DNA of 48,868 nt from a virus. Location of the stretch: UHGV virus genome UHGV-0171424; one strand, given 5' to 3'. Shown here one piece after another: positions 106 through 43,773 of this stretch; position 1 is the stretch's first letter, and each line of letters begins with the position of its first letter. A program made the position numbers and the translations under genes. Below the pieces are notes generated by a model. The model did no database searches and was not told the DNA's origin. It worked only from the letters and a program-made list of their open reading frames with translations.

Positions 106-687
106 ATGATTCATCTTAGAGATAATTGTCACGGAACTACAAAATTTAAAGAAACAGAATTGTGCAGTATTTGTGCACTTCATGACCACCATGATTTTGT
201 GAAAGCGAAAAATATGGGTCTTCCTGCGCGTAATGAACTCTATCAGAAAGTTCTCAATGGTCTTAACGATGGTCGATTGTGGAGGGTACAGAAGAAACCA
301 AACAGCGAATGTGGACATCCGGGCGTCCGTAACACCGCTGGTAAATGTGTCTTCTGCTTGACCGAGCAACGCATGACGGGGGAATGGAAAAAACCAAAAC
401 CAGCCATTGTTAACACCGCTGGTGAGGTTGATGCACTGCGCGAGAATATCGCAATGATTGAGCGCAACATTACAGTATTGAATGAGCAGTTGCAGATGAT
501 GAAAAACGCCCTGTTACTGAGTGAATCAGGAATTCACGTTGGTGTTATTAAAATGAAATCACCGCGCCAGCAAGCCATCGCCGACGGCAAACGCTGGTAC
601 ATTCCGTATGAGCCTTGCAAGCATTGCAATATTATTGCAGAACGTTATGTAGCGAATGGTCGCTGTCGTAATTGCGGTGGTAAATAA
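106..687 (+). CDS. Cys-rich early protein (multiple CxxC pairs, putative Zn-binding), first gene after the early promoter
   Basis: 193-aa ORF with strong RBS; CxxC...CxxC pairs (CSIC, CVFC, CKHC, CRNC); followed by terminator. Confidence 0.6.
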   Translation: MIHLRDNCHGTTKFKETELCSICALHDHHDFVKAKNMGLPARNELYQKVLNGLNDGRLWRVQKKPNSECGHPGVRNTAGKCVFCLTEQRMTGEWKKPKPAIVNTAGEVDALRENIAMIERNITVLNEQLQMMKNALLLSESGIHVGVIKMKSPRQQAIADGKRWYIPYEPCKHCNIIAERYVANGRCRNCGGK

Positions 688-691
688 TAAA

Positions 692-727
692 TAAAAAACA
701 AAGCCCGCTAAATGCGGGCCTTTTATT
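692..727. terminator. bidirectional rho-independent terminator
   Basis: AGCCCGC-TAAAT-GCGGGC hairpin flanked by an A-run upstream and a T-run downstream; lies between convergent genes. Confidence 0.7.
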
Positions 728-1902
728 TACTTGAGTAACTGTATTCCGTATTTCCCTTTCCCTTCCAGTCCGTACTGGTCCTTAATCATCTCCACAGGGA
801 TTGATATTCTACCAATCTCACCGTAGTCTCGATGATATGTTATGACGGTAGCACTTCTTCCGGAGTCGTAACCTCCGTTACTTGAATACTCGTCTTTGGC
901 CGCCAGAGTTTGGTGCATCTCAGTAACGAACATGTTGCTCTCTGCTACTTTCCGGTGATGATAGTGCCCCGTGTGTAGGTAGCCAAACTTAGTACGACCG
1001 TAAATCTCCCGGAACTTACTGGCAAATACTGCGTCCAACTTTTCCATTCTGGAACAATGCCCGTGATGGACACCAATCATCACTTTGCCGAATTCGATTG
1101 CATAATAGGGGCTCTGTTCTTCCACAATGGTCACGCGGGGATTATCGCAATACACCTCTTTAAACATCTCTCGCAACCACACGGCGGACGCGAGGTCATG
1201 GTTACCCGTGGCGATTAGCAGCGTCACTTTCCGATGCTTCTCCAGACACATGTTCACGGCTCGCTTAATCACACGGATAGCAGTCTGGACAACTTTGAAG
1301 AAACGCGTATCAGAGTCGAGAATATGTCCGGATGTTGGTGTAACCGCCTTCAGTCCGTCGAAGTGCAGGAAATCTCCCTGAAGGTTAATGAGACACTCTG
1401 TTGCGTTGGGTGCCAATGCTGTCGCTGATTTGAACCACGACGATATGAGATGCTCCGCAATGTTTGTATCATAATCGTCCCCACCCTCTTCTTCACATGC
1501 TAACATACCAATGTGTGCATCCGTTACTGTGTACATATTCAGGAGAGTGGTATCCTCATCACGGGATATTAAATTAATTTCCTCTAGTGGGGATAAGCAC
1601 TCTGTAAGCGCCGCAATCGCTTCCTGCATCATTTTTAACTGGCGCTCGGAGTCCACATCGGTCTTGACCCATTGCATCGCCAGGGTGCCGTCTGACTTCA
1701 CCAGTGACGATGTGCCTTTCACCTTGTAACCGTCCGGCACAAAGCGAGACACATTACCACCGTGACCCAGACCGCGCGCACCGAGACGTTTAATGCGGCG
1801 GTTAATGTTTCCCGGGCTCATACTGTACTTTTTCGCTATAGCATGACCACTCATTCCCGCAGTCACGTCGGCCAGTAATTGCTCATCGGTCAGTATACTC
1901 AT
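727..1902 (-). CDS. N-terminal HTH domain fused to calcineurin-like metallophosphoesterase
   Basis: 391 aa; N-terminal HTH-like segment (AIAKKYSMSPGNINRRIKRLG); MPP motifs D-x-H, GDFLHFDG, GNHD, GVHHGH, GHYHH. Confidence 0.6.
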   Translation of the reverse strand: MSILTDEQLLADVTAGMSGHAIAKKYSMSPGNINRRIKRLGARGLGHGGNVSRFVPDGYKVKGTSSLVKSDGTLAMQWVKTDVDSERQLKMMQEAIAALTECLSPLEEINLISRDEDTTLLNMYTVTDAHIGMLACEEEGGDDYDTNIAEHLISSWFKSATALAPNATECLINLQGDFLHFDGLKAVTPTSGHILDSDTRFFKVVQTAIRVIKRAVNMCLEKHRKVTLLIATGNHDLASAVWLREMFKEVYCDNPRVTIVEEQSPYYAIEFGKVMIGVHHGHCSRMEKLDAVFASKFREIYGRTKFGYLHTGHYHHRKVAESNMFVTEMHQTLAAKDEYSSNGGYDSGRSATVITYHRDYGEIGRISIPVEMIKDQYGLEGKGKYGIQLLK

Positions 1903-2886: not shown

Positions 2887-3063
2887 TTAACATGTGCATC
2901 CGAAATCGAATTCGGCGGCGAACGCTTCGTATTTTCTGAGAAGTTCGATGTAATCTTTACCGAGTTGACATGCTTCTTCGACTGTCAACTCTATCTGGTC
3001 GAGTGTGCTATCAGGTTGCATTTCCAAAAGAGTTTTGGCGATATCTTCTGTTGTTCTGCCCAT
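2887..3063 (-). CDS. small hypothetical protein (58 aa)
   Basis: ORF found by hand with RBS AGAGGG upstream of the ATG at 3063; more plausible than the opposing 2869-3099 plus-strand ORF; first gene downstream of the minus-strand palindromic promoter. Confidence 0.4.
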   Translation of the reverse strand: MGRTTEDIAKTLLEMQPDSTLDQIELTVEEACQLGKDYIELLRKYEAFAAEFDFGCTC

Positions 3064-3098: not shown

Positions 3099-3127
3099 AA
3101 GATAACTCACCTTGACGATGTCGTCAA
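3099..3127 (-). promoter_or_regulatory. palindromic early promoter, minus strand (TTGACG-acat-CGTCAA, 17-nt spacer, TATCTT)
   Basis: perfect 16-bp palindrome at 3112-3127; -10-like TATCTT at 3099-3104 on the minus strand. Confidence 0.5.
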
Positions 3128-3136
3128 CACTAATTG

Positions 3137-3158
3137 CAAAAAAAAGCCCCGAAGGGCT
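3137..3158 (-). terminator. rho-independent terminator after the primase-helicase gene
   Basis: GCCCTTCGGGGC hairpin followed by T8 on the minus strand; overlaps the primase stop codon. Confidence 0.75.
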
Positions 3159-5476
3159 TATTTAGTTTCCGCAAAGGCTAACGCGCTTGTATCACCCTGT
3201 GCCGCCGCGTAATGGCGCGCCACGTCTGCTGCATTTGTGAGATTAGCGTGAATATGTCCAATCTTGATATATAACCGTGGCTTACCACCGTCAATCATTA
3301 TCACGTTGTTCACGCGCCCATCCTTGAGCGCCGGGTGCCAGTCGTAACCCAGTTGACGCATCATGTCGCGACGTTTACCCACCGGCACAGTACGGTCGGC
3401 GCGCATCTGGCGTAACAGGTTGTCCAGTGCCTTACTGCTCACCCAACCACCCGCAAAGCCCTGACGACCCTCGTCAATTGCTTCCATAATTTCCTGCTCA
3501 ACACTACCGAGTGATGCTGTCACAGCCTCGTGAGTGCTGCTGGTCTCTGGTGCACGCTGACAATGTGTCGCCGGGTTAAATTGTGCGGGAATGGCGTAGT
3601 TCTCCAGATAATGCGTTACGGCTGCAAATCCGCCACCACGTTTGAGCCAGTCATACAGGTTGGGGAAGTAATCGCCACCCATACCGTCACGTACAATGTC
3701 GATATGCTCCTGCTGTGCGGTATAGAAAATGGCGAACCGGCGGTCATTAGCTGTCTTGCGCACGGCGTTTTTGTGGTTACTATTGAACATGAAGTTAGCA
3801 CACAGGCGGTGCATCACCTGGTCCTGCTGCATCGCACGCTTAGCGAGGTACTCACCAGTAATCATCGGCTTGAGTGTTTCAATCAGTTCGAGTTTCTGCT
3901 CCGGAACGTAAATGTCTTCCACGCCGATAAATATTTTATCGAACAGCCAGGCGTTGAACTTCTCACCAATTTCCTGCGCTGGCGGCATGTGGCTGTAACG
4001 TGAACCGACCGCTTCCATTACGCACAATGTGAACAGTGTTTTACCGTTACCTTCGACGCCCTGCAGCAATGGTGCCCATTTAAATTTAGTTCCCTTGTAC
4101 TGGACGCACGCCGCCATGTAGGACAACAGAATGTCGCGGTCACGCTCGACGGGTAACAGTTTGGTCAGATGAGTGAGGAAAGGTGTCACATCGCCCGGGA
4201 CGCTCGCCACCGTCACCGGTACGTATGCGTTAACATGACGCAAACCGTCTTCCTCAATAATGGCACCCTGTGACAGGTCCGGACGGAATGTCGAGCGGTC
4301 AACTTTCGGGAACATGATGCACTGACTCCGTGTGAAGGCTTCGAAAGCAGACTTTGTTGTTTTTTCGTTACTGTCATCTAACGCGAAGGCATAACCACCG
4401 TACATAACGTCGAATTGTTCCGATTTCAGCATTTGACCATTTGGGGTTAATACACGATGACTATCGGCTACATATACGCAGCCTTTAAAATGGTCTAATA
4501 ATTGAGACCCACCAATGAACTGATAGCCGCTGCGGATAATTGGCGTATTAGATTCTACAACCTGCGCGGGGGTCACCAGTTCAATCGGTGCGCCGACGCT
4601 ATAATAGGTTGTGAGAAGCCCGGCAGCGTTGAGGATGGTGCGCTCCAGGTAAGATTTATTGGTGAACCATTTATCTCTTTTGAGTCCACTTTGTAGCATC
4701 AGCGATTTAGTTCTTTCGCAGTTCCCACCTGTCCACCATAAAAGTCGGGTGGCGAGAGATGAATCGAGTGATGAACGGTCGTCATCTTCCGATACCACGC
4801 CGTTCCACAGGTCTTTGAAAGTGGCCTTACCACCAAAAACAACAGAAACCCCTTCCTTAGCCGCACACGCTTTTTCGATGAGTTTCGCATCATCCTCAAT
4901 CGGGTTACTGCCCACCTGTGGCGAATTCGTCCATTTCACCGACACCGCGGATTCTTCTTTCGGGAAATAGCGTGCAATTACTGTATTTAGTGCTCCGGTG
5001 GCATCGTGTTCCCACGACCCTTGCGCACTTGAACCAGTCAAAGCGACAAATCTTTCGGTGTGGTATAACTCAATACCGAGCGGTATGTTTTTACAAGCGT
5101 GCTCAGGGATGGAAGAATATCGTCCGATGATGTGTAAACCGGTGCCACTCTGCGAAATTTCAACATAGCACCCGGCGAAAGTCTGACACAGTTCCACGGC
5201 CAACGGAGACCACGCTCCGTCAATTAGACAATGGTCGATATCGATGAAGAAATATGGGTCTGTATCTGTGAACACAAACCCAACTCCGTCTGCACCCCGT
5301 GCGAGTGCGTCACCATACGTCAACCAGTCATTCGGGTTGGTTGTGGAACCGTGGGGTCGCTTGGTTGTTTTGTCACCCACTTTAACGAGTGAGTAAGGAA
5401 TATACTGTTTTCTCTCTGTAATCATCATTTCAGTAACCTTAACCAGTATTGTAATTCTGTTGACCATCGCAACCAT
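3158..5476 (-). CDS. DNA primase-helicase (N-terminal prim-pol/D5_N-like primase, C-terminal SF3 helicase)
   Basis: 772 aa; prim-pol motifs DIDH and SGTGLH; Walker A GVEGNGKT; size and architecture match P4-alpha/D5-type primase-helicases. Confidence 0.8.
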   Translation of the reverse strand: MVAMVNRITILVKVTEMMITERKQYIPYSLVKVGDKTTKRPHGSTTNPNDWLTYGDALARGADGVGFVFTDTDPYFFIDIDHCLIDGAWSPLAVELCQTFAGCYVEISQSGTGLHIIGRYSSIPEHACKNIPLGIELYHTERFVALTGSSAQGSWEHDATGALNTVIARYFPKEESAVSVKWTNSPQVGSNPIEDDAKLIEKACAAKEGVSVVFGGKATFKDLWNGVVSEDDDRSSLDSSLATRLLWWTGGNCERTKSLMLQSGLKRDKWFTNKSYLERTILNAAGLLTTYYSVGAPIELVTPAQVVESNTPIIRSGYQFIGGSQLLDHFKGCVYVADSHRVLTPNGQMLKSEQFDVMYGGYAFALDDSNEKTTKSAFEAFTRSQCIMFPKVDRSTFRPDLSQGAIIEEDGLRHVNAYVPVTVASVPGDVTPFLTHLTKLLPVERDRDILLSYMAACVQYKGTKFKWAPLLQGVEGNGKTLFTLCVMEAVGSRYSHMPPAQEIGEKFNAWLFDKIFIGVEDIYVPEQKLELIETLKPMITGEYLAKRAMQQDQVMHRLCANFMFNSNHKNAVRKTANDRRFAIFYTAQQEHIDIVRDGMGGDYFPNLYDWLKRGGGFAAVTHYLENYAIPAQFNPATHCQRAPETSSTHEAVTASLGSVEQEIMEAIDEGRQGFAGGWVSSKALDNLLRQMRADRTVPVGKRRDMMRQLGYDWHPALKDGRVNNVIMIDGGKPRLYIKIGHIHANLTNAADVARHYAAAQGDTSALAFAETK

Positions 5477-6123
5477 TCTGTTGCACCATCGAACCCCGTA
5501 AACCCGGCGGATTCGAATTTATCATGAAACATCTTTTCAAACTGTCGTGCTGTTTGTCCGTCACATTCTATACGCTCTATGACGGATACGTCAAACGGTG
5601 TTGCCCTTCTCAATTGAGAAAATCTCTGTTCGAAGTTGTTGGTTATCCCAATCTTCACGTATTGCCCACAATCGGAGCGAATTGCGTAGAGGGTAGCCGG
5701 TTTTGTTGAGTCAAATCCCGTCGTCGTACAACCCGGACAACGTGTACCCTTGTTTACGAAATTGGTATAGCTTACATCCCATTTGCCGTGTTGTTTGCAG
5801 AATATCTCGAATTTAGAATGTTGATTGATGTAGTCCCCGAGCCATGCTACAAATTCATAACCATTAATTGCGCAGATGTTGTTTATCTGGAGTTCCCTTT
5901 CCGGTGTTGAAGTCATTTGATTTTGTGCACAAGTGGGGCAACGTGCACCATGATTTATAAAGTTGTTAACCGATGGTGACCATTTACCGTGCTGTTCGCA
6001 GATGCAAATGAATTTACTATTGTTATTTCGGTACTCTTCAACCCATCCTGCGAAAGAGTAAATAGTACCTTCGCACAGTCGGGAGATTTGATCCTCCCGT
6101 TCCTGAGCAGTGTTTCTTCTCAT
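5425..6123 (-). CDS. homing-endonuclease-like protein: two Zn-ribbon repeats plus a C-terminal GIY-YIG/T5orf172-like domain
   Basis: repeats CEQHGKW...CPTC and CKQHGKW...CPGC; C-terminus LYAIR...YVKIGITNN...R fits the GIY-YIG-like T5orf172 fold; overlaps the primase start by 52 nt. Confidence 0.55.
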   Translation of the reverse strand: MRRNTAQEREDQISRLCEGTIYSFAGWVEEYRNNNSKFICICEQHGKWSPSVNNFINHGARCPTCAQNQMTSTPERELQINNICAINGYEFVAWLGDYINQHSKFEIFCKQHGKWDVSYTNFVNKGTRCPGCTTTGFDSTKPATLYAIRSDCGQYVKIGITNNFEQRFSQLRRATPFDVSVIERIECDGQTARQFEKMFHDKFESAGFTGFDGATEWLRWSTELQYWLRLLK

Positions 6124-6135
6124 TGAGAAGTGACC

Positions 6136-6456
6136 TTACAGTAAATATTCGTTCACTGCTTTGACTCGAATCTCACGTGGGGCCGAATTTGCGATTTTGT
6201 CACCCAACGCAATGCCTTGTGCAATGATTCCCAGATTTTCCTCCTCCACTGCACGCTGCATGACAGCATCGCGTAACGCAGACATGACTCCCCAGTGATG
6301 GTTGATACTGCCCATTGCCACGCCAGCTTCGGCTGCTACACCATCGCGGGTAAGGGTACCAAAGCCATCGCGCTGCGCCATTGTAAACGCTACTTCTAAA
6401 ATATTATCTTTGCTCATAATTTCGGTTCCATCAGGTAATTTGTTGCAGTATGGCAC
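6136..6456 (-). CDS. small TetR-family-like HTH DNA-binding protein
   Basis: ILEVAFTMAQRDGFGTLTRDGVAAEAGVAMGSINHHWG matches the TetR N-terminal HTH signature (…AGVSKGTLYHHF); only about 100 aa; GTG start at 6456 or ATG at 6414. Confidence 0.45.
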   Translation of the reverse strand: MPYCNKLPDGTEIMSKDNILEVAFTMAQRDGFGTLTRDGVAAEAGVAMGSINHHWGVMSALRDAVMQRAVEEENLGIIAQGIALGDKIANSAPREIRVKAVNEYLL

Positions 6457-6465
6457 AGGTTGACG

Positions 6466-6627
6466 GGATGGTCAATCCCTCCGCAGGTAGTGAACGACCG
6501 CAATTTGAAGAAACACACCGACAGCGCAAAGAAGTGCGAGCCATCCTGTAGCGGGAATTTTGTCAAACCATGTGCAGATAAGCCCCAAATACAAACCCGC
6601 GATACACCCATCTAAAAATAAAATCCA
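6466..6627 (-). CDS. small hydrophobic membrane protein (53 aa, 2 predicted TMDs)
   Basis: ORF found by hand, MNKWILFLDGCIAGLYLGLICTWF...; differs in frame from the track ORF 6414-6611. Confidence 0.3.
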
Positions 6628-6635
6628 CTTGTTCA

Positions 6636-7115
6636 TCACAACTCCCCCTCACCGCTGTAAAATTTAAAATCACCGCCCAGTCCGATAATGAGCGTCCCAA
6701 ACGCAAGCTGTGCCGCTTCGTGTTCCGTACCTTTATACTTCCATCCGGCTTTCTTTACCTCACGCGCCACAAACTGTCCAATGGTTGACCCGACCATATC
6801 AGGCGTGATAACCACGGGGCGAATACCGATGAGGTCGCTCGACTTGATACGCTTGTTCATCGCCGGGGAGTCATTGCAGATGCCATAGCGTACAACTCGA
6901 CCATTTTCGTCTTTTAACGCACCGCAATTGTTTCTGAAAAGTCGCCAACCCATCTTGCTTGCCAGTAGTCGCGCCTCATCCTGCACACGCGCTTCGGGCG
7001 TATCTTTGGTTGAGCGTGGGACGTCCAGTCCCACCATTGTCACAAGGTCAGCCAGCGCCTCAGCCGTGATACCGTGCTTACGTTGCCATTCGAGAAGTGT
7101 TGGTGTCATCCGCAT
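6636..7115 (-). CDS. VRR-NUC domain nuclease
   Basis: NNCGALKDENGRVVRYGICNDSP...SDLIGIRPVV...GxFVAREVKK fits the VRR-NUC PD-(D/E)xK signature. Confidence 0.65.
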   Translation of the reverse strand: MRMTPTLLEWQRKHGITAEALADLVTMVGLDVPRSTKDTPEARVQDEARLLASKMGWRLFRNNCGALKDENGRVVRYGICNDSPAMNKRIKSSDLIGIRPVVITPDMVGSTIGQFVAREVKKAGWKYKGTEHEAAQLAFGTLIIGLGGDFKFYSGEGEL

Positions 7116-7270
7116 ACCTCGACCCAATCGAATTTATCGAACAAAATTTCACTGTTAATTGTCACGACCGGTGAATACGATAACCATTCAATTCGCTCGA
7201 CAAGGACATGGGAGCCATCGGGCATCATTAATGTGTCCCCCAGATGCACATCTGCAATCAGTTTACGCAT
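7106..7270 (-). CDS. hypothetical small protein
   Basis: track ORF 7106-7330 trimmed to an internal Met to avoid a 68-nt out-of-frame overlap. Confidence 0.3.
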   Translation of the reverse strand: MRKLIADVHLGDTLMMPDGSHVLVERIEWLSYSPVVTINSEILFDKFDWVEVCG

Positions 7271-7451
7271 TTCGTTCACCTTTTCGCATACGAGCAAGAC
7301 AAAGTTTACAAGTGACTTTTGATTTGACACGAGTGGTTTTTCTCATGTAACCGCACAGTGCCCCTGACAAACCCATTCTAAAATAAGCCTGCCGCGCACT
7401 TAAAGGCATTTGACTATCTGTTTCCGGATGTCGCATGTGCAACTTACTCAT
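7263..7451 (-). CDS. small Cys-containing (Zn-finger-like) protein
   Basis: RBS AGGAGA upstream of the ATG at 7451 (MSKLHMRHPE...); the track N-terminal extension overlaps a terminator hairpin. Confidence 0.4.
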   Translation of the reverse strand: MSKLHMRHPETDSQMPLSARQAYFRMGLSGALCGYMRKTTRVKSKVTCKLCLARMRKGERNA

Positions 7452-7475
7452 AACCCAATCCTCTCTCTCTCCTAA

Positions 7476-7497
7476 TTCATCCACAAAACCCGCCGAG
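7476..7497 (-). terminator. intra-operon rho-independent terminator/attenuator
   Basis: minus-strand hairpin CCCGCCTCGGCGGG followed by TTTTGTGG, immediately after the stop of the 7503-7766 gene. Confidence 0.5.
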
Positions 7498-7502
7498 GCG
7501 GG

Positions 7503-7766
7503 TTAGATTTTACCTTCTCGCATGAGACCTTCCGCAAGAGTCATGATGTATTTTTTAGGTTCCCAGTTTAGTATCGCTTTAATCGCACCTTTTTCTGTTT
7601 TATAGGGTTTAATGAATGGTACAACTGCTTCGACGATGCCCCGACCGTAACCACGTTCAGTTTCCTGAAAAACACGAAACCCATCGTCAACTGCTTTGAC
7701 CACTAAGCGTTTGAAACATTGAACACCTGTTTCCGGGTTAGTGTAACGAGAATAGTAGACTTCCAT
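7503..7766 (-). CDS. hypothetical protein
   Basis: 87-aa ORF within the leftward early operon. Confidence 0.45.
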   Translation of the reverse strand: MEVYYSRYTNPETGVQCFKRLVVKAVDDGFRVFQETERGYGRGIVEAVVPFIKPYKTEKGAIKAILNWEPKKYIMTLAEGLMREGKI

Positions 7767-7800
7767 TTTGTATTTCCTTCAGTTCGTTTCGATGAACTAA

Positions 7801-9477
7801 CTATAACCCATCTTTGACGAGTCCGTCAACATCGTTTTGTATTTTTTCCATCAGTGCTATCGCATCGTCTTTTTTCAGACTTTGGGCACTCAACCAGTCG
7901 GTACGATAAGTCAGGAAAAATTTACGGAAAATTTCTTTGTCACTCATACCGTCGTGTCGCCAATAACCAGCAATAGTTGCCATCAGGCTATCCAGTTGCC
8001 CCAACACTTCCAGGCGCTCACGTTGACGTTTGACATTGGCCATCACTCCAGCGGGTGGTACATGCATCGCCGTCATCCTGTCACGCATTGCCTCGGGTGT
8101 CTCACGTGCTCCCACAACATCATTACGCATCTGTGCCAGTACATCCGGGTCAAGCTCGCACAGGTCACCGTCAACGAACTCTGGACCACTACGTTGCGCA
8201 GGTTTTGGTACAGGCTCACCACAGTCAGGACATGCATCGCGGAACCGTTCGTACACCGCCGCGCAAGTTGTACACACGCGCACCGTCGATGGTTCACTTT
8301 TACCTGTGCGACGCTCCCGGCGGTCAAGACTCCACTCACGCGGTGCGTCCGGTAAACCGTGGCGCATGACGTTCGATACGGCGTCGATGACCGTGAGATG
8401 TGTCTTCCCCGTGTCGGGACTGGTCCGCGTGCCTCGCCCAAACATCTGGCAAAAAAGCGCGTAGCTTTGCGTGGGTCGCGCAAATGATACGACTTCCAGG
8501 GAACTAACGTCCGTCCCTTCTGTGAGAACACTATCATTTACAATCTGTAAAACTTTTCCGCTGGCGATATCACGCAGTGCCTGAATGCGTTCACTGTCTT
8601 TCATCCGCCCCGATACAGCTACAGCAGGCACACCTTTTGCGCGATAGGCATCGGCAACTTCTTCCGCCATATCCACACCGACGGTGAAAGTTACACCCCG
8701 TTTACCGGGTGTAAATTTTAACCAGTGTTGAACTATGTCCCCCACAATGTGGGATTTACCTATTTCCACCTTGAGTTCTTTTTCGACATAATCGCCAGTC
8801 GTGGTGCTGACTTTAACTCTACCAAGATGTAAATCGGAAGGTGGACAATAAATTTTGTAATCCACCAGAAAACCCATCTCGATAAGGTCACGCATTCCCG
8901 GCCCGATAACGAGTGCGTCACCATATCCGTCTGTTTCACGCGACAACCCTTTTCCATCAGCCCGACATGGTGTAGCTGTCAACCCTAAACCGCGTGCACC
9001 CGCGTTATCAAGCGGTGTAAAAACACCACCCCACGTTTTTGAGTCGCGCGTATAATGGTGAAATTCGTCACCTATGATTGTTAATTTATCGCGGTACGCC
9101 TTCAGTTCGTCAATGTGTTGTTGTTTAACGGACTGAACTGAAGCGACGGTTATTTTTGCCGATGGATCATAATAAGTTCGTCCGTGGTCCTCCATGTGGA
9201 GCCTGATTGAATACTTTATTGTTGAGTGTGCTGCGATTATGTTGTGACGGAGTTCGTTTCTCGCCAGCGTGTTACTCAACTGTGATATTAGCTCTGAACG
9301 ATGTGCGGTAATCAGAACACGCTGCCCACGTGCCGCTTCTATTCGGGCTATTTCGCAAAGCACGCTGGCTTTACCACTGCCGGTCGGCATGACTAACACC
9401 ACAAAACGCTTACCAACAGCCCAATTTGCGTATACGTTATCAATCGCATTTTGTTGATAAGGTCGCATTATTAACAT
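7801..9477 (-). CDS. SF2 DEAD/DEAH-box DNA helicase with C-terminal Zn-ribbon
   Basis: Walker A PTGSGKA, motif II DEFHH, motif III LTATP, motif VI QMFGRGTR; C-terminal CTTC...CPDC. Confidence 0.8.
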   Translation of the reverse strand: MLIMRPYQQNAIDNVYANWAVGKRFVVLVMPTGSGKASVLCEIARIEAARGQRVLITAHRSELISQLSNTLARNELRHNIIAAHSTIKYSIRLHMEDHGRTYYDPSAKITVASVQSVKQQHIDELKAYRDKLTIIGDEFHHYTRDSKTWGGVFTPLDNAGARGLGLTATPCRADGKGLSRETDGYGDALVIGPGMRDLIEMGFLVDYKIYCPPSDLHLGRVKVSTTTGDYVEKELKVEIGKSHIVGDIVQHWLKFTPGKRGVTFTVGVDMAEEVADAYRAKGVPAVAVSGRMKDSERIQALRDIASGKVLQIVNDSVLTEGTDVSSLEVVSFARPTQSYALFCQMFGRGTRTSPDTGKTHLTVIDAVSNVMRHGLPDAPREWSLDRRERRTGKSEPSTVRVCTTCAAVYERFRDACPDCGEPVPKPAQRSGPEFVDGDLCELDPDVLAQMRNDVVGARETPEAMRDRMTAMHVPPAGVMANVKRQRERLEVLGQLDSLMATIAGYWRHDGMSDKEIFRKFFLTYRTDWLSAQSLKKDDAIALMEKIQNDVDGLVKDGL

Positions 9478-10136
9478 TTTGTCGGCCCCTTATACGTCTG
9501 ATTCTTACCCTTAAACGATGGTTCCGAAATTGCGCGTTCTACCGACCACCCGTAGCGGGTTAACCTGCCCTTCAAAGTGTAATAATTAACGCCTGATACC
9601 TCTGATAGTTCACGAATGTCATACATTTTTCCGTTGTACTCGTATTTCAGAGTATTGGTTCTGTTTAATGGTTGTTTTTCGTTTTCAATCCAAGTACAAT
9701 TTTCGGGACAATAGTCACCATCTACATCTTTTCTTTCCATTGTCACTTTTTCTTTGTACCCTGAAGATATTGCCCATGCGTGAAATGACTCAAAGTTGTG
9801 CCAGTCTTCACAAACCGTAATGCCGCGACCACCATAATGGGGAAAGTCCTTACACTCCGGGTTGTAACAGCGTTGCTTCATTGCTGTCCATACCCAGTTT
9901 AATTTTTGAAAACGTTTGGACAGACCGTGCGTTTTCAATGCTGGTGAACAACCACAATGTGATTTTTTTCCAGATTTTTTAGCAATTAACATTGTACTGA
10001 CGAGTCGTTCGGTTGTGCCTCCACATTCACACTTAAATGACCAAATCCAACCACCCCTTTCATTTGTGCGAACTGGTTTTATTGCTGTTAACATCCCAAA
10101 TTTTTCACCAGTAATATCTTTTCTATGGTTAGCCAT
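9471..10136 (-). CDS. HNH-family homing-endonuclease-like protein
   Basis: motifs W..MKQRCYNP....YGGRGI.VCEDW..F..F..WA and a C-terminal DVDGDYCPENCTW...EKQ..N resembling degenerate phage HNH endonucleases; good RBS. Confidence 0.45.
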   Translation of the reverse strand: MANHRKDITGEKFGMLTAIKPVRTNERGGWIWSFKCECGGTTERLVSTMLIAKKSGKKSHCGCSPALKTHGLSKRFQKLNWVWTAMKQRCYNPECKDFPHYGGRGITVCEDWHNFESFHAWAISSGYKEKVTMERKDVDGDYCPENCTWIENEKQPLNRTNTLKYEYNGKMYDIRELSEVSGVNYYTLKGRLTRYGWSVERAISEPSFKGKNQTYKGPTKC

Positions 10137-10188
10137 GTTTCACCTCTTCCAATGTCAAAACGTTGCCCCATTATGAGAGGTGATTCAC

Positions 10189-10359
10189 CACATGTCAACT
10201 ACATCTCCCACACTTTGCGCACGCTGTTCGACTCAACCATACGTGCCTTTCTGATTAGTTTACGTGCCACATACATCGGTATCTGCACATCGTCGAGGAA
10301 CCATTTGTCCTTCTTACTGACCGAATTGTACCAGCCGTAAGAAGGTCGGAGCAGTTGTT
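10189..10359 (-). CDS. small hypothetical protein (56 aa)
   Basis: ORF found by hand with RBS GGAG 9 nt upstream of the ATG at 10359. Confidence 0.3.
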
Positions 10360-10365
10360 TAATTT

Positions 10366-10593
10366 TCATAACAGTGGCTCCGCGTCGGGGTTGCGTTTCC
10401 AGTACGCCGCATAAATTTCCTGTTCAGTGTAATAGACACCCTTATGTGTTGTACCCGCACAGATTTCATCAAAGAAACCGTAACCCATCACTGTAATGAA
10501 CTCCCATTCTGGCATTTCCGAAAGAATTTTTACTTTGTTTTCAAAGTTCTGCTTTTCCACCATATCGGTAATCAATTGTCCCAACAGCGTCAT
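10366..10593 (-). CDS. hypothetical protein, first gene of the leftward early operon
   Basis: 75-aa ORF directly downstream of the leftward promoter. Confidence 0.45.
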   Translation of the reverse strand: MTLLGQLITDMVEKQNFENKVKILSEMPEWEFITVMGYGFFDEICAGTTHKGVYYTEQEIYAAYWKRNPDAEPLL

Positions 10594-10613
10594 CTCTCAT
10601 TACCTCTCTGTTA

Positions 10614-10656
10614 TTGACGATGGCGTCATTATGTCGCATCACCCACCCCGTGTCAA
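10614..10656 (-). promoter_or_regulatory. leftward early promoter (TTGACA -17- CATAAT) with the TTGACGatggCGTCA palindrome at its start site (operator-like position)
   Basis: minus-strand TTGACA at 10656-10651 and CATAAT at 10633-10628; palindrome at 10614-10628 lies immediately downstream of the -10. Confidence 0.55.
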
Positions 10657-10670
10657 ATTTAAAATTAGTG

Positions 10671-10699
10671 TTGACGAGTGCGTCATGGTGGTATAGAGT
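10671..10699 (+). promoter_or_regulatory. palindromic promoter (TTGACG-agtg-CGTCA, N8, TAGAGT)
   Basis: TTGACG at 10671-10676, CGTCA at 10681-10685, TAGAGT at 10694-10699; 17-nt spacer; drives the plus-strand replication gene block. Confidence 0.6.
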
Positions 10700-10731
10700 T
10701 CACCACATCGACAACAATGGAGGACAGAGAG

Positions 10732-13529: not shown

Positions 13530-13558
13530 TTGACGCACCCGTCAAACTAACGTAGTAT
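13530..13558 (+). promoter_or_regulatory. palindromic promoter (TTGACG-cacc-CGTCAA, N7, TAGTAT)
   Basis: TTGACG at 13530-13535, CGTCAA at 13540-13545, TAGTAT at 13553-13558. Confidence 0.5.
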
Positions 13559-13612: not shown

Positions 13613-14425
13613 ATGGCTCAATTTACTTTCGTTACCCCTGTTGCTCGCCTGATTCACGGTCACCCGCTGAAGCAAAACGTACGCACCGATGATGTCACAA
13701 AGCAGCCGGTTATCGGTAAAGATGGTCAGCCGGTTAAAGAAATTTACATCGGTATCGCAATTCCTAAAACTGGTGAAGTGGACTGGAAAGATACCGAATG
13801 GGGTAAACAAATCGTAATGGCGGCACTGGACGCTGAAAACGGTTATGATGTTGGTACCACTCGTCGCCCGGATTTTTCCTGGAAAGTAATCGATGGCGAT
13901 AGCGACATCCCGAACAAAGCTGGTCACGCGCCGAACAGCGACGAATACAAACGCGGTCACTGGGTCTTGCACCTGAACACCCGCATCCCGTACAACTGCT
14001 ATCATGTCGGCAAATATAATCCGCTCGATGCGATTCAGGACATAAACGCTATTAAACTCGGTGATTATGTCCGTGTGAATATCGTGGCGAAAGGTAATAA
14101 GCCGTCTAAAACTCCGGGCGTATATTTGAACCCGAACCTGCTCGAACTTTCACGCTCTGGCGAAGCGATTGTTCGTGAAGGTAGCGGTCCGGATGCAGCA
14201 AGCGTATTCGGCGGTAGTGCACCTGCTCAGGTAGCACCGACCCCAGCCCCAGCTGCTCCCGCACCTGCAACACCGCCGCCAGCAACTGACTTACTGGTGA
14301 CACCGCCGCCGGTTGTTGAAGAGAAGTATAGCTACAACGGCGCCGTGTATACCAAAGCACAGTTGCTCGGTATGCCCGGCTGGAGCGAAGAGTTAATCGC
14401 ACAACACTGTCAGAAAGTAGCATAA
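13613..14425 (+). CDS. DUF2815-family phage SSB-like protein
   Basis: 270 aa; typical position between the DUF2800 nuclease and the DNA polymerase; C-terminal Pro/Ala-rich linker. Confidence 0.6.
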   Translation: MAQFTFVTPVARLIHGHPLKQNVRTDDVTKQPVIGKDGQPVKEIYIGIAIPKTGEVDWKDTEWGKQIVMAALDAENGYDVGTTRRPDFSWKVIDGDSDIPNKAGHAPNSDEYKRGHWVLHLNTRIPYNCYHVGKYNPLDAIQDINAIKLGDYVRVNIVAKGNKPSKTPGVYLNPNLLELSRSGEAIVREGSGPDAASVFGGSAPAQVAPTPAPAAPAPATPPPATDLLVTPPPVVEEKYSYNGAVYTKAQLLGMPGWSEELIAQHCQKVA

Positions 14426-14983: not shown

Positions 14984-17158
14984 ATGCACTATTTATCAAA
15001 ATGCGAGGATGCAACTTGCGGCAAAACATACCCTGCTGACCTCCACAATTGCCCCCACTGTGGGGCTGATTCAGCGTTCTCCAGTATTGCACCACTGGAC
15101 CCCAAGTGGTGGCCTTACGACATTGAAACGTATCCAAACATTTTTACTGCCACTTTCATCCATGCTGCGACCGGTATGGAACTGGTGTATGAAATTAGTG
15201 ACCGTAAAAACCAACAGCAAGAAATGGTTGACTTCATATTCAACCTGGGAAAATCCGGCGCATGGGGCGTGGGCTTTAACAACATGTCATTCGACTACCC
15301 CGTGTTGCATTTCATCGCACATAACCCCGGTTGCACAGTGAAGGATATTTACGACTGCTCACAACGAACCATTAAGGTGAGTAACGTTAATCGTTGGTCT
15401 GTGATGATGTGGGACCGTGACCAGATATTTCCACAGTTGGATTTGCTGTTGCTCAATCATTTCGACAACAAGGCACGCATGACAAGCCTGAAAGCGCTCG
15501 AAGTTGCAATGAAATCGCCAAACGTGAAAGACCTTCCTTTCCCTGTTGGAATGGCTCTGAACGATGCCCAGAAAGATGAATTAATCACGTATAACATTCA
15601 TGACGTGCGCGAAACGACGAAATTTATGATGCGCTGTCTGTCGGCTATTCAGTTTCGTGAAGAACTGTGCCAGACACACGGTCGCAACTTTATGAACCAT
15701 AACGACACGAAAATCGGTAAAGATTATTTCGTTATGGAACTGGAGAAAAACGGAATCCAGTGCTTCAACCGTGACGATAAGGGTCGAAAGCTCGGACCAC
15801 GGCAAACCCCACGTGAAAGCATTTGTTTCGCAGATGTGATTTTTCCATACATCAAATTTGACCGCCCGGAATTCAACGAGATTTTGAAGCGCTTCCAGTC
15901 GAAAACCATTTACAAAAAAGAACTCGATGAACTGGAAAAAGCAGAAGGAAAAAAAGATAAATTAGTGACAAAAGGTGTGTTTAGCGACCTGGAATGTACC
16001 ATTAATGGGTACACTTTTGTATTTGGTGTCGGCGGCATCCACGGGTCGATTGAGTCCCAGATTGTGGAAACGAATGACACACATCAACTCGTCGACATCG
16101 ATGTTTCAAGCATGTACCCCAGCATAGCGATTGCAAACCGTATTTACCCGGAACATCTGGGGGAGAAGTTTTGCGATATCAATGAATACTTCTTCAATGA
16201 GCGTATGCGCGTAGGGAAGAAAACTACACCGGGTGCAGTGTACAAGCTCTCAATGAATGGTGTGTACGGCGACAGTAACAACGCGTTTGGACCATTTTAC
16301 GACCCGAAATACACGATGACTGTCACTGTCAACGGTCAGTTAATGCTTGCAATGTTATGTGAGGGATTGATGAAAATCCCCGGCCTATCCATTGTGCAAA
16401 CGAACACTGATGGCGTCACGATGATGTGTCCACACGTTGAGCTCGACAATATGCGCGCAATTTGTCGGGCATGGGAAGCAATCACCAAACTGGAACTTGA
16501 GGAAGTGTTCTACAAGCGTATGCCAATCCGCGACGTCAACAATTACTTGGCTCTCAATAATAAAGGAAATATAAAACGCAAGGGAGCTTACGAATACGAG
16601 TACCAATGGCATCAGGACCCATCCGCAACAATCGTGGGTAAAGCTGCTGAAGCCGCACTCCTGTTTGACACTGACATCCGCACGTTTATCACGCAGCATC
16701 GTGACCCGTTCGATTTTATGCTGCGAGCAAAAGTGCCTCGTTCTGCACGTCTGGTGATGCGTTGGCCGGAATGGGGCGCTGAACGAGAAATGCAGAATAC
16801 CACACGTGTGTTTATCTCGCGCAACGGTGGGTCACTGGTCAAGCTGTTACCTCCAACAGGTGTACCGGGTACATGGAAGCGTAAGAACGGTATCAAAGAC
16901 GACGTGTACAATACGGTAATGCGTGAGATTACCGGTCAACCGGGAGACCTCGACAGCATAGGTACACCGTGGGACGAGCGTATCCACACGAAGAGTCGCA
17001 GCAAGCATGATGTAGTGCGTGAAACCGGGATGTATGTCGGATGGAAGGTAACAGAGTGTGCCGATGCTAATGATTTCGACTGGGGGAGTCTGGACTATGA
17101 GTATTATGTGAAGGAAGCGGAAAAGTTAGTTTTACCGTTGACGAGCGCGTCAAAATAG
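14984..17158 (+). CDS. DNA polymerase (family-B-like motifs) with 3'-5' exonuclease and N-terminal Zn-ribbon
   Basis: 724 aa; N-terminal CGKT...CPHCG; Exo I YDIET; motif A DIDVSSMYPSI; motif B KLSMNGVYG; motif C-like TNTDG. Confidence 0.75.
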   Translation: MHYLSKCEDATCGKTYPADLHNCPHCGADSAFSSIAPLDPKWWPYDIETYPNIFTATFIHAATGMELVYEISDRKNQQQEMVDFIFNLGKSGAWGVGFNNMSFDYPVLHFIAHNPGCTVKDIYDCSQRTIKVSNVNRWSVMMWDRDQIFPQLDLLLLNHFDNKARMTSLKALEVAMKSPNVKDLPFPVGMALNDAQKDELITYNIHDVRETTKFMMRCLSAIQFREELCQTHGRNFMNHNDTKIGKDYFVMELEKNGIQCFNRDDKGRKLGPRQTPRESICFADVIFPYIKFDRPEFNEILKRFQSKTIYKKELDELEKAEGKKDKLVTKGVFSDLECTINGYTFVFGVGGIHGSIESQIVETNDTHQLVDIDVSSMYPSIAIANRIYPEHLGEKFCDINEYFFNERMRVGKKTTPGAVYKLSMNGVYGDSNNAFGPFYDPKYTMTVTVNGQLMLAMLCEGLMKIPGLSIVQTNTDGVTMMCPHVELDNMRAICRAWEAITKLELEEVFYKRMPIRDVNNYLALNNKGNIKRKGAYEYEYQWHQDPSATIVGKAAEAALLFDTDIRTFITQHRDPFDFMLRAKVPRSARLVMRWPEWGAEREMQNTTRVFISRNGGSLVKLLPPTGVPGTWKRKNGIKDDVYNTVMREITGQPGDLDSIGTPWDERIHTKSRSKHDVVRETGMYVGWKVTECADANDFDWGSLDYEYYVKEAEKLVLPLTSASK

Positions 17159-17166
17159 TTTAGAGT
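17138..17166 (+). promoter_or_regulatory. palindromic promoter (TTGACG-agcg-CGTCAA, N7, TAGAGT) overlapping the pol stop codon
   Basis: TTGACG at 17138-17143, CGTCAA at 17148-17153, TAGAGT at 17161-17166. Confidence 0.55.
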
Positions 17167-17198
17167 TAGTCATATCAACAACGGAGAGGGTAGACGAG

Positions 17199-17528
17199 AT
17201 GAAAGTGTTAGTTATTTACCAAAACATCCCTGAATCAACCAATGTTCACATCATTGAAGCGGACGGTGAGGATTTGGAGATACTTAAAAAATGTCACAAC
17301 TGTTATGTGAATGCTGGAGATATGACGGATGAGCAAGAGAAAGCTACTGACAAACTGAATTTCTTCCTGTCAAAACCGGAATACATCGATGAAGAATTTG
17401 CGAATCAGGTTGCGTTACCAGTGGGAGAAGGGGCTAAGTGGTGGGGTACCATGGTAGATGACTCCAATCCCATCGACCTGTCGAAATACAATGTAGACCT
17501 TGTGGTCTGTACTGGGTTCTTAATGTAA
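17199..17528 (+). CDS. acidic small protein (net charge about -12), hypothetical
   Basis: 109 aa rich in D/E; single-gene unit with its own promoter and terminator. Confidence 0.5.
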   Translation: MKVLVIYQNIPESTNVHIIEADGEDLEILKKCHNCYVNAGDMTDEQEKATDKLNFFLSKPEYIDEEFANQVALPVGEGAKWWGTMVDDSNPIDLSKYNVDLVVCTGFLM

Positions 17529-18377: not shown

Positions 18378-18431
18378 TTTATCGCCCTTGTATGTTAGGA
18401 TTAAGCCTAATTGTACAGCAGGTGTTACCAA

Positions 18432-18992
18432 ATGAAAAATCCTTTAAGTAAACAAATGACCGCCCTTCTCACCGCATTTGCAATGGGTGGTACGGGTACT
18501 GCGGTAGTCACGCAGACGGACATCCTCAATCAGTTCCTGAACGAGAAGGAAGGGAACAGGCTGACGGCATATCTGGACAGTGCAAATCCTCCCATCTGGA
18601 CCATCTGCCGGGGTGTGACGCGCATCGATGGTAGGCCGGTGACAAAGGGTATGCGGCTTACTGAAAAGCAATGCGACCTTCTGAACGACAAAGAAGCGCA
18701 AAAGTCGCTCAAATGGGTACGTGACAATATCCCGGTAAAACTAAACCCGGTACAACAGGTTGGCATTGCATCGTTCTGCCCGTACAACATTGGTCCCACC
18801 AAATGTAAGGGGTCGACATTCTTCAAATTGCTGCAAAAAGGCGACTGGAAGAACGCGTGCAAACAGATTCCTCGTTGGGTGTTTGATGGTGGTCGTGACT
18901 GCCGCATTAAAAGTAACAACTGTTCCGGGCAGCCGATTCGCCGGGAGCAGGAAGAGTATTTGTGCCTGTATACACTGGGGGAATCGAAATGA
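18432..18992 (+). CDS. SAR endolysin (T4-type GH24 lysozyme with N-terminal signal-anchor-release domain)
   Basis: catalytic E-x8-D-x5-T motif EGNRLTAYLDSANPPIWTICRG; N-terminal Gly/Ala-rich weakly hydrophobic segment ALLTAFAMGGTGTAVV. Confidence 0.75.
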   Translation: MKNPLSKQMTALLTAFAMGGTGTAVVTQTDILNQFLNEKEGNRLTAYLDSANPPIWTICRGVTRIDGRPVTKGMRLTEKQCDLLNDKEAQKSLKWVRDNIPVKLNPVQQVGIASFCPYNIGPTKCKGSTFFKLLQKGDWKNACKQIPRWVFDGGRDCRIKSNNCSGQPIRREQEEYLCLYTLGESK

Positions 18993-19318
18993 CAATGTTA
19001 CAGCGGGTAGTAATTGTTGTGGGAATCGTATTCGTGACATGTACATATTGGCTAGGTTATTATCACGGTGAGCGGTCGGTCAAGCTGGACGATTTCAAAG
19101 AATACAAAGCAGCCGTCGAAGCCCGTGACGCGCTGCAGGAAAAACTCAATGCTTCTGATGTGGAATTGCAGAAAAAGCAACAGGAACTGGAAGAAGCCCG
19201 GGCCAGAAAAGTCGGTGAAAAAGTCATCGTCTACCGTGACCGAATCAAAGACTCCGCCACCGCTCAGTGTGTCAAAGAGAGTGGTATCCTCGACCTGTAT
19301 GATGCGACCGTAAAATGA
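18989..19318 (+). CDS. i-spanin (Rz-like: N-terminal TMD plus coiled coil)
   Basis: MTMLQRVVIVVGIVFVTC TMD then a charged helical region; RBS GGGGG; overlaps the endolysin stop. Confidence 0.6.
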   Translation: MTMLQRVVIVVGIVFVTCTYWLGYYHGERSVKLDDFKEYKAAVEARDALQEKLNASDVELQKKQQELEEARARKVGEKVIVYRDRIKDSATAQCVKESGILDLYDATVK

Positions 19319-19551
19319 AAAAACTTATCCTGCTGGTAGCAGTACTTACTTTAACCGCCTGCGCTCAGGAAGTGCGTAATTGCCCGCCTCCGTCTAACGA
19401 CCTGCTTACGCCGAGCGGTGAGTTGTGGACAACCGATGGTGACCCCGAAAAGGCCGCTACGGTAATCCCACATAACGGGGAAGTTCTGATGGCCGACCGG
19501 GACAGAGTGTCCCGGTGGCAAAACTGGTGGGAAGGTTGTAAAATCTTATGA
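19315..19551 (+). CDS. o-spanin (Rz1-like outer-membrane lipoprotein, separate gene)
   Basis: lipobox LTLTAC, Pro-rich mature part, ATGA overlap with the i-spanin. Confidence 0.6.
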   Translation: MKKLILLVAVLTLTACAQEVRNCPPPSNDLLTPSGELWTTDGDPEKAATVIPHNGEVLMADRDRVSRWQNWWEGCKIL

Positions 19552-25703: not shown

Positions 25704-25732
25704 TTGACACTCACGTCAAACAATGTAATTAT
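25704..25732 (+). promoter_or_regulatory. palindromic promoter (TTGACA-ctca-CGTCAA, N7, AATTAT) antisense within the baseplate operon
   Basis: TTGACA at 25704-25709, CGTCAA at 25714-25719; only instance with no downstream ORF. Confidence 0.5.
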
Positions 25733-25739
25733 TTATTCA

Positions 25740-26239
25740 CAGGCATATAGCACATGTGTCTTTAGCGGTCCGGGGTGTCCTATTCCTTCGCATCAGCGGG
25801 TAGCCGGAATGTGTAGCCAGGCATGCACGAATACGGTTGGTCACCGTGGCGGTTCGACCAATACAACAGGTAAGGGTGTTTAGGCTACTAAGAAATCATC
25901 CGAGGCAATCAGACCTATCTTCTGTTAAGTGCCCTTTCCTGTTGTAACCCCCGAGGAGGTGGTCAACATCTTGCTGACGGGCAAGCCGTAAGTGACTGGA
26001 GTAATGTTGTGAAACATAACAACAGTTGCGACGATGGTTTAGAGTTGTGGTGAATACGTAGGTCGATACGTTAGAGACGGCACCCCTTGATGAGGACAGC
26101 GCTATCTCTGGAGAATAGTCTTGGGTACGTGTGATGCCAGAGAAAGCCGGAGTTCGACACCGGCCACCACAACTGTAAACCATAATCTCTCTGTTGTGCT
26201 CCTGCATGTTTGCCCCGGTCTCCGGGGCTTTTTTTTTTT
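25740..26239 (+). ncRNA. candidate ~500-nt non-coding RNA / structured transcript (unknown family)
   Basis: 569-bp gap in the minus-strand operon with no credible ORF on either strand; bounded by a plus-strand palindromic promoter and a strong plus-strand terminator; GC-rich helical segments. Confidence 0.45.
26212..26239 (+). terminator. strong rho-independent terminator (plus strand only)
   Basis: GCCCCGG-tct-CCGGGGC hairpin followed by T11; on the minus strand it is an A-run then hairpin, so not a minus-strand terminator. Confidence 0.8.
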
Positions 26240-30620: not shown

Positions 30621-30680
30621 TGTTATTTCTCCGGTTGTTAGTCGTTACAGTGTACACTTGACGAAATCATCAATCAATTG

Positions 30681-42643: not shown

Positions 42644-42676
42644 TAATTCATCAACAACAGAGAGGGTTTGAGACAA

Positions 42677-43771: not shown

Positions 43772-43773
43772 GC

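Follow-up and report, generated by a model that had tools for sequence, protein, structure and literature searches.

The viral genome UHGV-0171424, analysed here over its full length of 48,868 nucleotides (the window), carries a short palindrome, TTGACG-N4-CGTCA, whose left arm in most cases doubles as the -35 element of a predicted early or middle promoter and whose right arm then falls in the promoter spacer. Two copies lie in the divergent control region at 10,614 to 10,699. The question raised by this locus is whether the symmetric second arm marks a phage-specific class of promoter or a site for a dimeric regulator set into the promoters, the two options left by the initial annotation. 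Sequence comparison favours the second, with a TetR-like protein as the candidate binder. The reading judged to have a somewhat better than even chance is that these are sigma-70 promoters with an embedded operator for a 93-residue phage protein (here called mini-TetR), which would act as a ligand-independent shut-off or feedback repressor.

The source genome is that of a Jedunavirus (a Klebsiella myophage); it is complete (48,868 bp) and apparently circularly closed. The closest records, 1611E-K2-1, KpV52 and JustaPhage, show about 92-95% identity in the aligned parts, with at most 80% of a 24-kb query covered, which indicates a mosaic relationship. The annotations of close relatives contain no RNA polymerase, sigma factor or integrase.

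Motif frequency and promoter geometry

The exact motif TTGACG-N4-CGTCA gave 18 strand matches at 12 distinct sites, compared with 0.03 expected from dinucleotide shuffles. With one mismatch allowed there were 30 matches (1.65 expected), which adds three one-mismatch sites and brings the total to 15. The partner arm N4-CGTCA follows 18 of the 48 TTGACG hexamers, whereas the frequency of CGTCA per position is only 0.0016. All eleven sites of the initial annotation are real and correctly placed (ten exact, and the one at 25704 with one mismatch, TTGACA), and the -10 hexamers and 17-18 nt spacings quoted for them held on recheck. The list was incomplete, lacking 5580(-), 7815(-), 6461(-, one mismatch) and 30658 (one mismatch); the missed minus-strand sites mean that the minus-strand early units carry the motif as well.

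At 13 sites a -10-like hexamer is found 17-18 nt downstream, in a single orientation each, ahead of early and middle genes on both strands. At 12 of the 15 sites the -10 score lies above roughly the 90th percentile of the background, with a spacer of 17-18 and in one orientation only. The -35 hexamer of the 13 promoter-type sites is TTGACG in 11 and TTGACC and TTGACA in one each, and these sites have the marks of sigma-70 promoters, namely a -35 near TTGACA and a -10 hexamer TAnnnT in the 16-18 nt range. Bidirectional promoters with a common -35 are ruled out, as the -10 occurs in one orientation only. The palindromes at 10614 and 30658 do not serve as -35 elements and have no -10 of their own. 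The sites, together with the leftward early promoter, are the following.

3099-3127 (-): palindromic promoter TTGACGACATCGTCAA-N7-TATCTT, directly after the primase terminator and upstream of a small gene, 2887-3063(-)
5565-5594 (-): palindromic promoter TTGACGTATCCGTCAT-N8-TAGAAT, upstream of the primase gene 3158-5476(-) and within the 3' end of an inserted endonuclease gene, 5425-6123(-)
6447-6475 (-): mini-TetR's own promoter TTGACCATCCCGTCAA-N7-CATACT, with one mismatch (C at position 6), a variant kept in four Jedunaviruses
7800-7829 (-): palindromic promoter TTGACGGACTCGTCAA-N8-TATAGT, in the last helicase codons and upstream of 7503-7766(-)
10614-10629 (no strand assigned): operator-only palindrome TTGACGATGGCGTCAT, overlapping the last -10 bases and the start site of the leftward promoter, with no -10 of its own
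10628-10656 (-): P_L, the leftward early promoter, TTGACA-17-CATAAT (11/12 match), its spacer without a palindrome and an operator at its start site
10671-10699 (+): P_R, the rightward early promoter, TTGACG-AGTG-CGTCAT and then TAGAGT at a spacer of 17; palindrome 10671-10686; ATG at 10732
13530-13558 (+): palindromic promoter TTGACGCACCCGTCAA-N7-TAGTAT, upstream of the Gp2.5-like ssDNA-binding/annealing gene 13613-14425, with a syntenic equivalent in distant phages
17138-17166 (+): palindromic promoter TTGACGAGCGCGTCAA-N7-TAGAGT, in the last DNA polymerase codons and upstream of 17199-17528
25704-25732 (+): one-mismatch promoter TTGACACTCACGTCAA-N7-AATTAT, followed by ~170 nt without a convincing open reading frame (ORF) and kept in relatives
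30658-30673 (no strand assigned): one-mismatch auxiliary palindrome TTGACGAAATCATCAA, 23 bp upstream of 30681, without a -10 and identical in 1611E and KpV52
30681-30709 (+): palindromic promoter TTGACGGTGGCGTCAA-N7-TATAGT, for an island at 30740-31476 inside tail genes
34877-34905 (+): palindromic promoter TTGACGAATACGTCAA-N7-TACACT, for an island at 34937-35918 that includes a dUTPase-like gene; a 301-bp repeat ends at its TTGAC
41479-41507 (+): palindromic promoter TTGACGAATCCGTCAG-N7-CATAGT, for an island of small genes, and adjacent to a possible opposite-strand ATG of the head protease gene
42614-42643 (+): palindromic promoter TTGACGAGTTCGTCAG-N8-TATACT, for the small genes at 42668-43020
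43774-43802 (+): palindromic promoter TTGACGACCTCGTCAG-N7-TAGAGT, for the HNH / endonuclease VII island at 43840-45377

The initial annotation had set the 10614 copy at the start site of a divergent leftward promoter (TTGACA-17-CATAAT); the palindrome at 10614-10629 indeed overlaps the -10 and start of P_L. This operator is kept in 1611E, KpV52 and KsaM-C1, with differences confined to N4. Its further statement that every plus-strand unit is preceded by such a site went too far: the unit 106-687(+) has a promoter at 51-80 (TTGACC-18-TATAGT) that lacks the right arm, and there is no palindrome upstream of the lysis cassette 18411-19551(+). In the GenBank record of KpV52, four of ten palindrome sites are annotated as plain 'promoter' and a fifth promoter abuts the operator-only site, with the symmetry unmentioned; both P_L and a sequence identical to P_R carry this label there.

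There is next to no probability that the palindromes are hairpins (terminators, processing sites or cruciform promoters of the N4 type) or restriction/modification targets GAC-N6-GTC. Two sites appear terminator-like in a simple scan, and the core GAC-N6-GTC resembles an interrupted type II restriction site. Identity as a terminator or RNA hairpin is ruled out by the weak stems (-4 to -7.5 kcal/mol) and the lack of U tracts or T runs; moreover, most sites lie upstream of the predicted start and so would be untranscribed from their own promoter, and no virion RNA polymerase is annotated in relatives. Restriction sites are usually depleted by phages, not enriched, and neither idea accounts for the tie to a -10 at 17-18 nt.

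Predicted 5' leaders, 15-35 nt past the -10 (10705-10725, 17172-17190 and 42650-42665), contain a CA-rich element, CATCGACAACAA or CAACAAC, just before the Shine-Dalgarno sequence, and CA-rich leaders of a similar kind are found in phages PEi21, CP-T1, PY6, AeroV_348 and PD0307; the element may be a translational enhancer or a start-site context.

Selection on the arms

Sites of the window were compared with their orthologs in 1611E-K2-1, KpV52 and KsaM-C1 (26 orthologous site comparisons). The substitutions found were distributed as follows.

Left arm: 0/156
Central N4: 15/104
Right arm: 0/130
Position 16: 4/26
Flanks: 118/1560

The right arm differs from N4 with p = 3e-6, and both arms together differ from the flanks with p = 2e-9 (Fisher tests). 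Since orthologs were detected by a match in one arm only, detection bias cannot account for the invariance of both. Sigma-70 holoenzyme is not known to read positions -25 to -21 in a sequence-specific manner, and the constraint on the right arm therefore implies a reader other than sigma-70. A two-fold symmetric site whose half-sites are spaced by 10 bp is the hallmark of dimeric helix-turn-helix proteins. An embedded operator is thus favoured by a right arm under the same constraint as the -35 arm, next to a drifting N4, and by the position of the 10614 copy on the leftward -10 and start rather than in a -35.

These data bear on the alternative that no separate binder exists and that the right arm belongs to a phage-specific type of promoter, recognised by host RNA polymerase (possibly phage-modified), in which a spacer element tunes strength or timing. 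The near-consensus left arm, the fixed spacing to the -10 and the restriction of the motif, in most cases, to promoter-like positions agree with it, but it is considered unlikely, given that it relies on bases which sigma-70 is not known to read, leaves the perfect two-fold symmetry unexplained and has no place for the palindromes at 10614 and 30658, which are not -35 elements. Paralogous promoters without the right arm also still look strong.

The mini-TetR protein

The candidate for the reader of the embedded operator is the following gene product.

6136-6417 (-): mini-TetR, 93 residues, a TetR_N helix-turn-helix and three short helices; proposed palindrome binder

The initial annotation had described a small TetR-like protein at 6136-6456; a protein with a TetR_N domain is indeed encoded there, but its start is most likely the ATG at 6417 (93 residues), not 6456. 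Pfam TetR_N (PF00440) matches residues 6-52 with 29.4 bits (cut-off 24). The AlphaFold2 model is compact, with seven helices, a predicted local distance difference test score (pLDDT) of 95.4 and a predicted template modelling score (pTM) of 0.87. Foldseek matched it to the TetR family only, with the best local superpositions covering 58-59 columns at ~2 Å and the targets all 170-214 residues long. The C-terminal ligand-binding/dimerisation domain of the TetR family (~120-150 residues, helices 4-9/10) is absent. NCBIfam full-length TetR models matched the N-terminus only, far below their cut-offs, and that collection held no dedicated model. As modelled, mini-TetR consists of the DNA-binding domain of a TetR protein followed by a short helical tail, with no pocket for a ligand.

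As with operators of the TetR family, a 16-bp palindrome is present in the promoter of the mini-TetR gene itself, both in the window (6460) and in 1611E, KpV52, KsaM-C1, PEi21, CP-T1 and L138-L140.

The family corresponds to PHROG 8723, which is listed as 'unknown function'. A HMMER scan of 1.84 billion representative proteins gave 1,502 clusters (50% identity) at E <= 1e-10, and the members fall into size classes of ~93-115 and ~162-175 residues. Among the 150 best-scoring representative clusters (50% identity), about half have a length of ~166 residues and an extra N-terminal TetR-like helix-turn-helix in tandem, which fits a functional unit with two helix-turn-helix motifs. Members of this tandem class include P0121, P0125, P0131, P0137 and many others, as well as gp43 of SppYZU01.

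Conservation across phages

A tblastn search with mini-TetR found 97 phage records, including distant phages of 43-45 kb that belong to Vibrio (CP-T1), Edwardsiella (PEi21), Shewanella, Pseudomonas, Alteromonas and Pseudoalteromonas. Wherever its position was examined, the gene lies downstream of the helicase gene and in most cases immediately precedes the primase gene. When gapped palindromes were counted without bias, TTGAC-N6-GTCAA came first in CP-T1 and PEi21 as well. With one mismatch allowed, six genomes have 13-20 sites each versus ~1.5 in shuffles (the relatives counted were 1611E, KpV52, KsaM-C1, Vibrio CP-T1 and Edwardsiella PEi21), and at nearly all of these sites a -10 follows at 16-19 nt, mostly 17-18.

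Syntenic counterparts of these promoters are found in phages of Vibrio, Edwardsiella and Shewanella and in four uncultivated phages identified via distant mini-TetR homologues, and a TetR_N protein of the 93-residue type is common to all. In the four uncultivated phages the positions are before the mini-TetR gene, before the gene of the single-stranded DNA-binding protein (SSB) inside the 3' end of the DUF2800 exonuclease gene, and in the divergent control region. Only four ORFs of the window (mini-TetR, nuclease, helicase and exonuclease) have homologues in all six more distant genomes, and mini-TetR is the sole regulator-type protein among them. That the motif travels with this replication module, the promoter of the regulator included, favours mini-TetR as the binder.

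In Pseudoalteromonas phage PY6 (L009), mini-TetR is 30% identical and the palindrome is a different one of the same 6-N4-6 form, TAGCGC-N4-GCGCTA. It occurs five times (7108, 8015, 12383, 19993 and 28189), each time between a -35 of TTGAC and a -10 of TACACT. The palindrome of PY6 lies in the spacer and is thus separable from the -35. A different palindrome in the promoter spacers of a mini-TetR phage again favours an embedded operator; a promoter class without a binder gives no reason for another sequence in the same spacer. The first residues of the recognition helix are V-[A/S/G]-[M/T/A]-G in the TTGAC-type lineages versus I-S-P-P in PY6.

Binding by a host transcription factor, either a full-length TetR protein like RutR or another dimeric helix-turn-helix protein, would couple early phage transcription to host physiology. 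The outer 5+5 bases of the phage motif equal those of the RutR consensus operator, TTGACCAnnTGGTCAA (PMC2475637), and the key RutR positions 4 and 13 are matched. Two fragments of uncultivated viral contigs from IMG/VR, L076 (GC content 63%, 5672-10662) and L065 (GC content 68%, 6648-8007), carry five to six copies of TTGAC-N6-GTCAA with a -10 and a conserved leader and show no visible mini-TetR within the stretch examined, as a host binder would allow. Against this, positions 6 and 11 are consistently G and C where RutR prefers C and G, mini-TetR has no specific similarity to RutR among solved structures, and PY6 alters the palindrome sequence and retains the architecture. The motif is also kept across Klebsiella, Edwardsiella, Vibrio, Shewanella and uncultivated phages, always with the phage regulator and ahead of its gene. 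A host binder is likewise regarded as unlikely.

Pfam gave nothing informative on the ORFs of L076. In the search for related loci, the PY6 protein found no relatives and the CP-T1 protein found only two contigs of the CP-T1/138 type. SppYZU01 (L006) and R9Y2 (L008) have 12 sites each of GACG-N4-CGTC and CGAC-N6-GTCG, respectively, versus ~1 expected (first-order Markov model). These copies are mostly without promoter-like context and possibly intragenic; they could reflect codon periodicity or usage, or dispersed intragenic binding sites, and were not used as evidence.

Cassette junctions

Homology between genomes repeatedly stops at the palindrome. At 18805 in KpV52 the upstream flank is that of window site 30681 and the downstream one resembles that of 43774; at 13530, 6460 and 10614 one flank is kept and the other replaced; and the 301-bp repeat ends at TTGAC. 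These junctions agree with a mainly recombinational role, in which the palindrome is shared micro-homology for cassette swaps and conserved for that reason rather than for regulation. Cassettes begin at promoters anyway, so the coincidence does not discriminate, and the zero arm substitutions next to a free N4, the fixed -10 distance and the syntenic conservation across phages with proteins of 30-40% identity are left unexplained; the idea is accordingly rated very unlikely. Recombination at the palindromes is compatible with an embedded operator and best seen as a consequence of cassettes that share one short sequence. A secondary evolutionary role of the palindrome as a marker, and possible mediator, of cassette exchange may exist.

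Proposed mode of action

The transcription units of the window concerned are arranged as follows.

~10.6 kb down to 0.7 kb: leftward early operon with helicase, nuclease, the small TetR-like protein and primase
10.7-17.5 kb: rightward operon with exonuclease, Gp2.5-like SSB and DNA polymerase
18411-19551 (+): lysis cassette
Minus strand: long structural operons, interrupted by short plus-strand accessory islands (dUTPase, HNH, endonuclease VII)

In the favoured reading, about 13 promoters read by host sigma-70 RNA polymerase would drive the early and middle genes, namely the two divergent replication/recombination operons and the small plus-strand islands that lie antisense in the late structural operons. 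Each would contain a 16-bp two-fold operator whose left arm doubles as the -35 (TTGACG) and whose right arm, CGTCA[A], falls within the spacer at a distance of one helical turn. Being near consensus, these promoters would be strongly active when infection begins and the DNA is still naked. Mini-TetR would be supplied by the leftward early operon and by its own weaker promoter (TTGACC...CATACT). Once placed on the -35 to -20 region (at P_L, on the -10/start site), a dimer would keep RNA polymerase out, and as the protein builds up all palindromic promoters, its own included, would be damped or shut off jointly. The promoters at 30681, 34877, 41479, 42614 and 43774 are predicted to fire against the surrounding late operons, and their silencing would remove head-on interference with late transcription. 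The identity of the binder, its dimeric binding, the repression and its timing are proposed here from sequence.

Several points weigh against this proposal. Dimer formation by mini-TetR is assumed, as the canonical TetR dimerisation domain is lacking. The covariation of recognition helix and operator is suggestive, with one alternative specificity that is confounded by phylogeny. A de novo search found no recurrent promoter-associated palindrome in the mini-TetR phages Vibrio 97.13, 367.14, AeroV_348, PD0307, 1.009.O, R9Y2 and Psp6, in which mini-TetR may control few sites or sites undetectable here. The fragments L076 and L065 show no detectable homology to window proteins and no mini-TetR within the 9-13 kb examined. 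Strong promoters without the palindrome are also present in the window, at 51-80 and 10170-10198. No binding, footprinting, start-site or expression results for any member were found in the searchable literature.

A wider and quite unlikely extension is that the family members are master repressors with operators set into the -35 region of each early and middle promoter, and that in the 'strictly lytic' therapeutic Klebsiella Jedunaviruses they could silence the whole early programme and thereby support a carrier or pseudolysogenic state and superinfection immunity. CP-T1 is recorded as derived from an induced lysogen although no integrase is noted in its record, which hints at such a state.

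Other features of the window

The ORF-poor stretch 25733-25895(+), past the promoter at 25704, has a start that is conserved in 1611E, KpV52 and KsaM-C1. A structured RNA is unsupported (fold z-score -0.8, no Rfam or tRNA match); the stretch might give rise to a small RNA, or to an antisense transcript that runs towards the baseplate operon. No Rfam family or tRNA was matched in scans of the whole window.

Several palindromes stop 1-2 nt short of a late-gene start codon (ATG) on the opposite strand (genes for head morphogenesis, protease and tail). Such sites are found in the window (43771-43789 and 41477-41494), KpV52 (7525-7542), PEi21 (4735 and 19894) and CP-T1 (23361 and 30663); for the palindrome at 43774 the gap is 2 nt, to the ATG (43771) with which the head morphogenesis gene starts on the other strand. 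The ribosome-binding region of the late gene is thereby placed inside the palindrome (e.g., GAGG in the N4 at 43774), and occupancy of the early promoter or an mRNA hairpin might be coupled to late-gene translation.

A perfect, AT-rich direct repeat of 301 bp is present at 34581-34881 and at 48623-48868 plus 1-55; the latter copy spans the window ends, which indicates that the genome is circularly closed. The end of the repeat falls exactly on a promoter's TTGAC. In the copy at 34877 the palindrome is complete, and the copy at 51 runs on as TTGACCtgtaattctc, without the right arm. Short internal palindromes of the repeat occur as paired copies also in 1611E and KpV52. The repeat might be an origin or a packaging-related sequence.

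Four genes are of the homing-endonuclease type: 5425-6123(-), 9471-10136(-), 43840-44697(+) and 44757-45377(+). The types represented are CapR + T5orf172/GIY-YIG-like, two HNH and one endonuclease VII-like. The first two genes are insertions relative to 1611E-K2-1, and each comes with a promoter predicted to restore expression of the downstream gene, a palindromic one at 5565-5594 and a second TTGACA-17-CATAAT at 10170-10198, respectively.

The product of 727-1902(-), labelled 'winged helix-turn-helix domain-containing protein' in RefSeq relatives, was considered as an alternative binder and rejected. It belongs to PHROG 704, DNA repair exonuclease (E = 5e-141), is absent from CP-T1 and PEi21, and its helix-turn-helix matches fall below Pfam cut-offs.

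Significance and comparison with known systems

Jedunaviruses are common phage-therapy candidates against Klebsiella pneumoniae. If the proposal is true, one 93-residue protein and one 16-bp sequence coordinate about 13 transcription units, and the silencing of early promoters that lie antisense in late operons is explained. It would also give a function to a very large unannotated phage family, that of a minimal TetR DNA-binding module without a sensor domain, and supply synthetic biology with small orthogonal pairs of repressor and operator (TTGACG-N4-CGTCAA and TAGCGC-N4-GCGCTA). The sequence of cassette exchange between these phages would be identified as well.

Phage repressors with many dispersed operators and TetR operators of this geometry are already known. 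What is new is a TetR module of half size without a sensor, the joining of its putative operator to the -35 of early and middle units, and their deep conservation with the replication module. No earlier description of the palindrome or of a mini-TetR function was found in the searchable literature; Comeau et al. 2012 mention 'tetR-like cellular regulators' in CP-T1 and relatives, and nothing further (PMC3391216).

The E. coli systems of RutR (operator TTGACCAnnTGGTCAA) and NemR (TAGACCGACTGGTCTA) share with the proposed phage system a TetR_N helix-turn-helix in the (candidate) binder, a 16-bp palindrome whose half-sites are separated by one helical turn, and an operator ahead of the regulator's own gene. 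The outer TTGAC...GTCAA of the phage operator is identical to the RutR consensus (PMC2475637), but the inner positions of a RutR site (C6/A7, T10/G11) are not matched, the phage sites having G6 at 11/13 and C11 at 13/13. In contrast to the known TetR-family pairs, the phage protein has 93 residues instead of ~170-215 and no ligand-binding/dimerisation domain, so induction by a small molecule in the usual way would be impossible, and the putative phage operator is joined to the -35 element in about 13 promoters spread over a viral genome.

P1 C1, the inverted repeats of Streptomyces phage phiC31 and the 'stoperators' of mycobacteriophage L5 gp71 are examples of phage repressors with dispersed operators. 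There, as proposed here for the candidate binder and its 15 sites, one phage protein serves a dozen or more sites, many of them on early promoters. Those phages are temperate and their repressors are not TetR-like and confer immunity, whereas the present phage is regarded as virulent and its operator overlaps the -35; the L5 sites, in addition, are asymmetric and act within transcription units. With lambda Cro and phi29 p4/p6 the proposed system would share an early product that lowers early promoters and its own expression; theirs act at one or a few control regions, whereas here putative operator copies are found at early and middle units throughout the genome. The promoter-early stem-loops (PeSLs) of T4-type phages have been proposed as recombination substrates without a dedicated binding protein. 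They are short conserved inverted repeats at early promoters that border exchangeable cassettes, and the palindromes described here may resemble them in this (junctions coincide with the palindrome at several loci, though cassettes begin at promoters in any case); unlike in the PeSLs, the sequence constraint and geometry here point to recognition by a protein.

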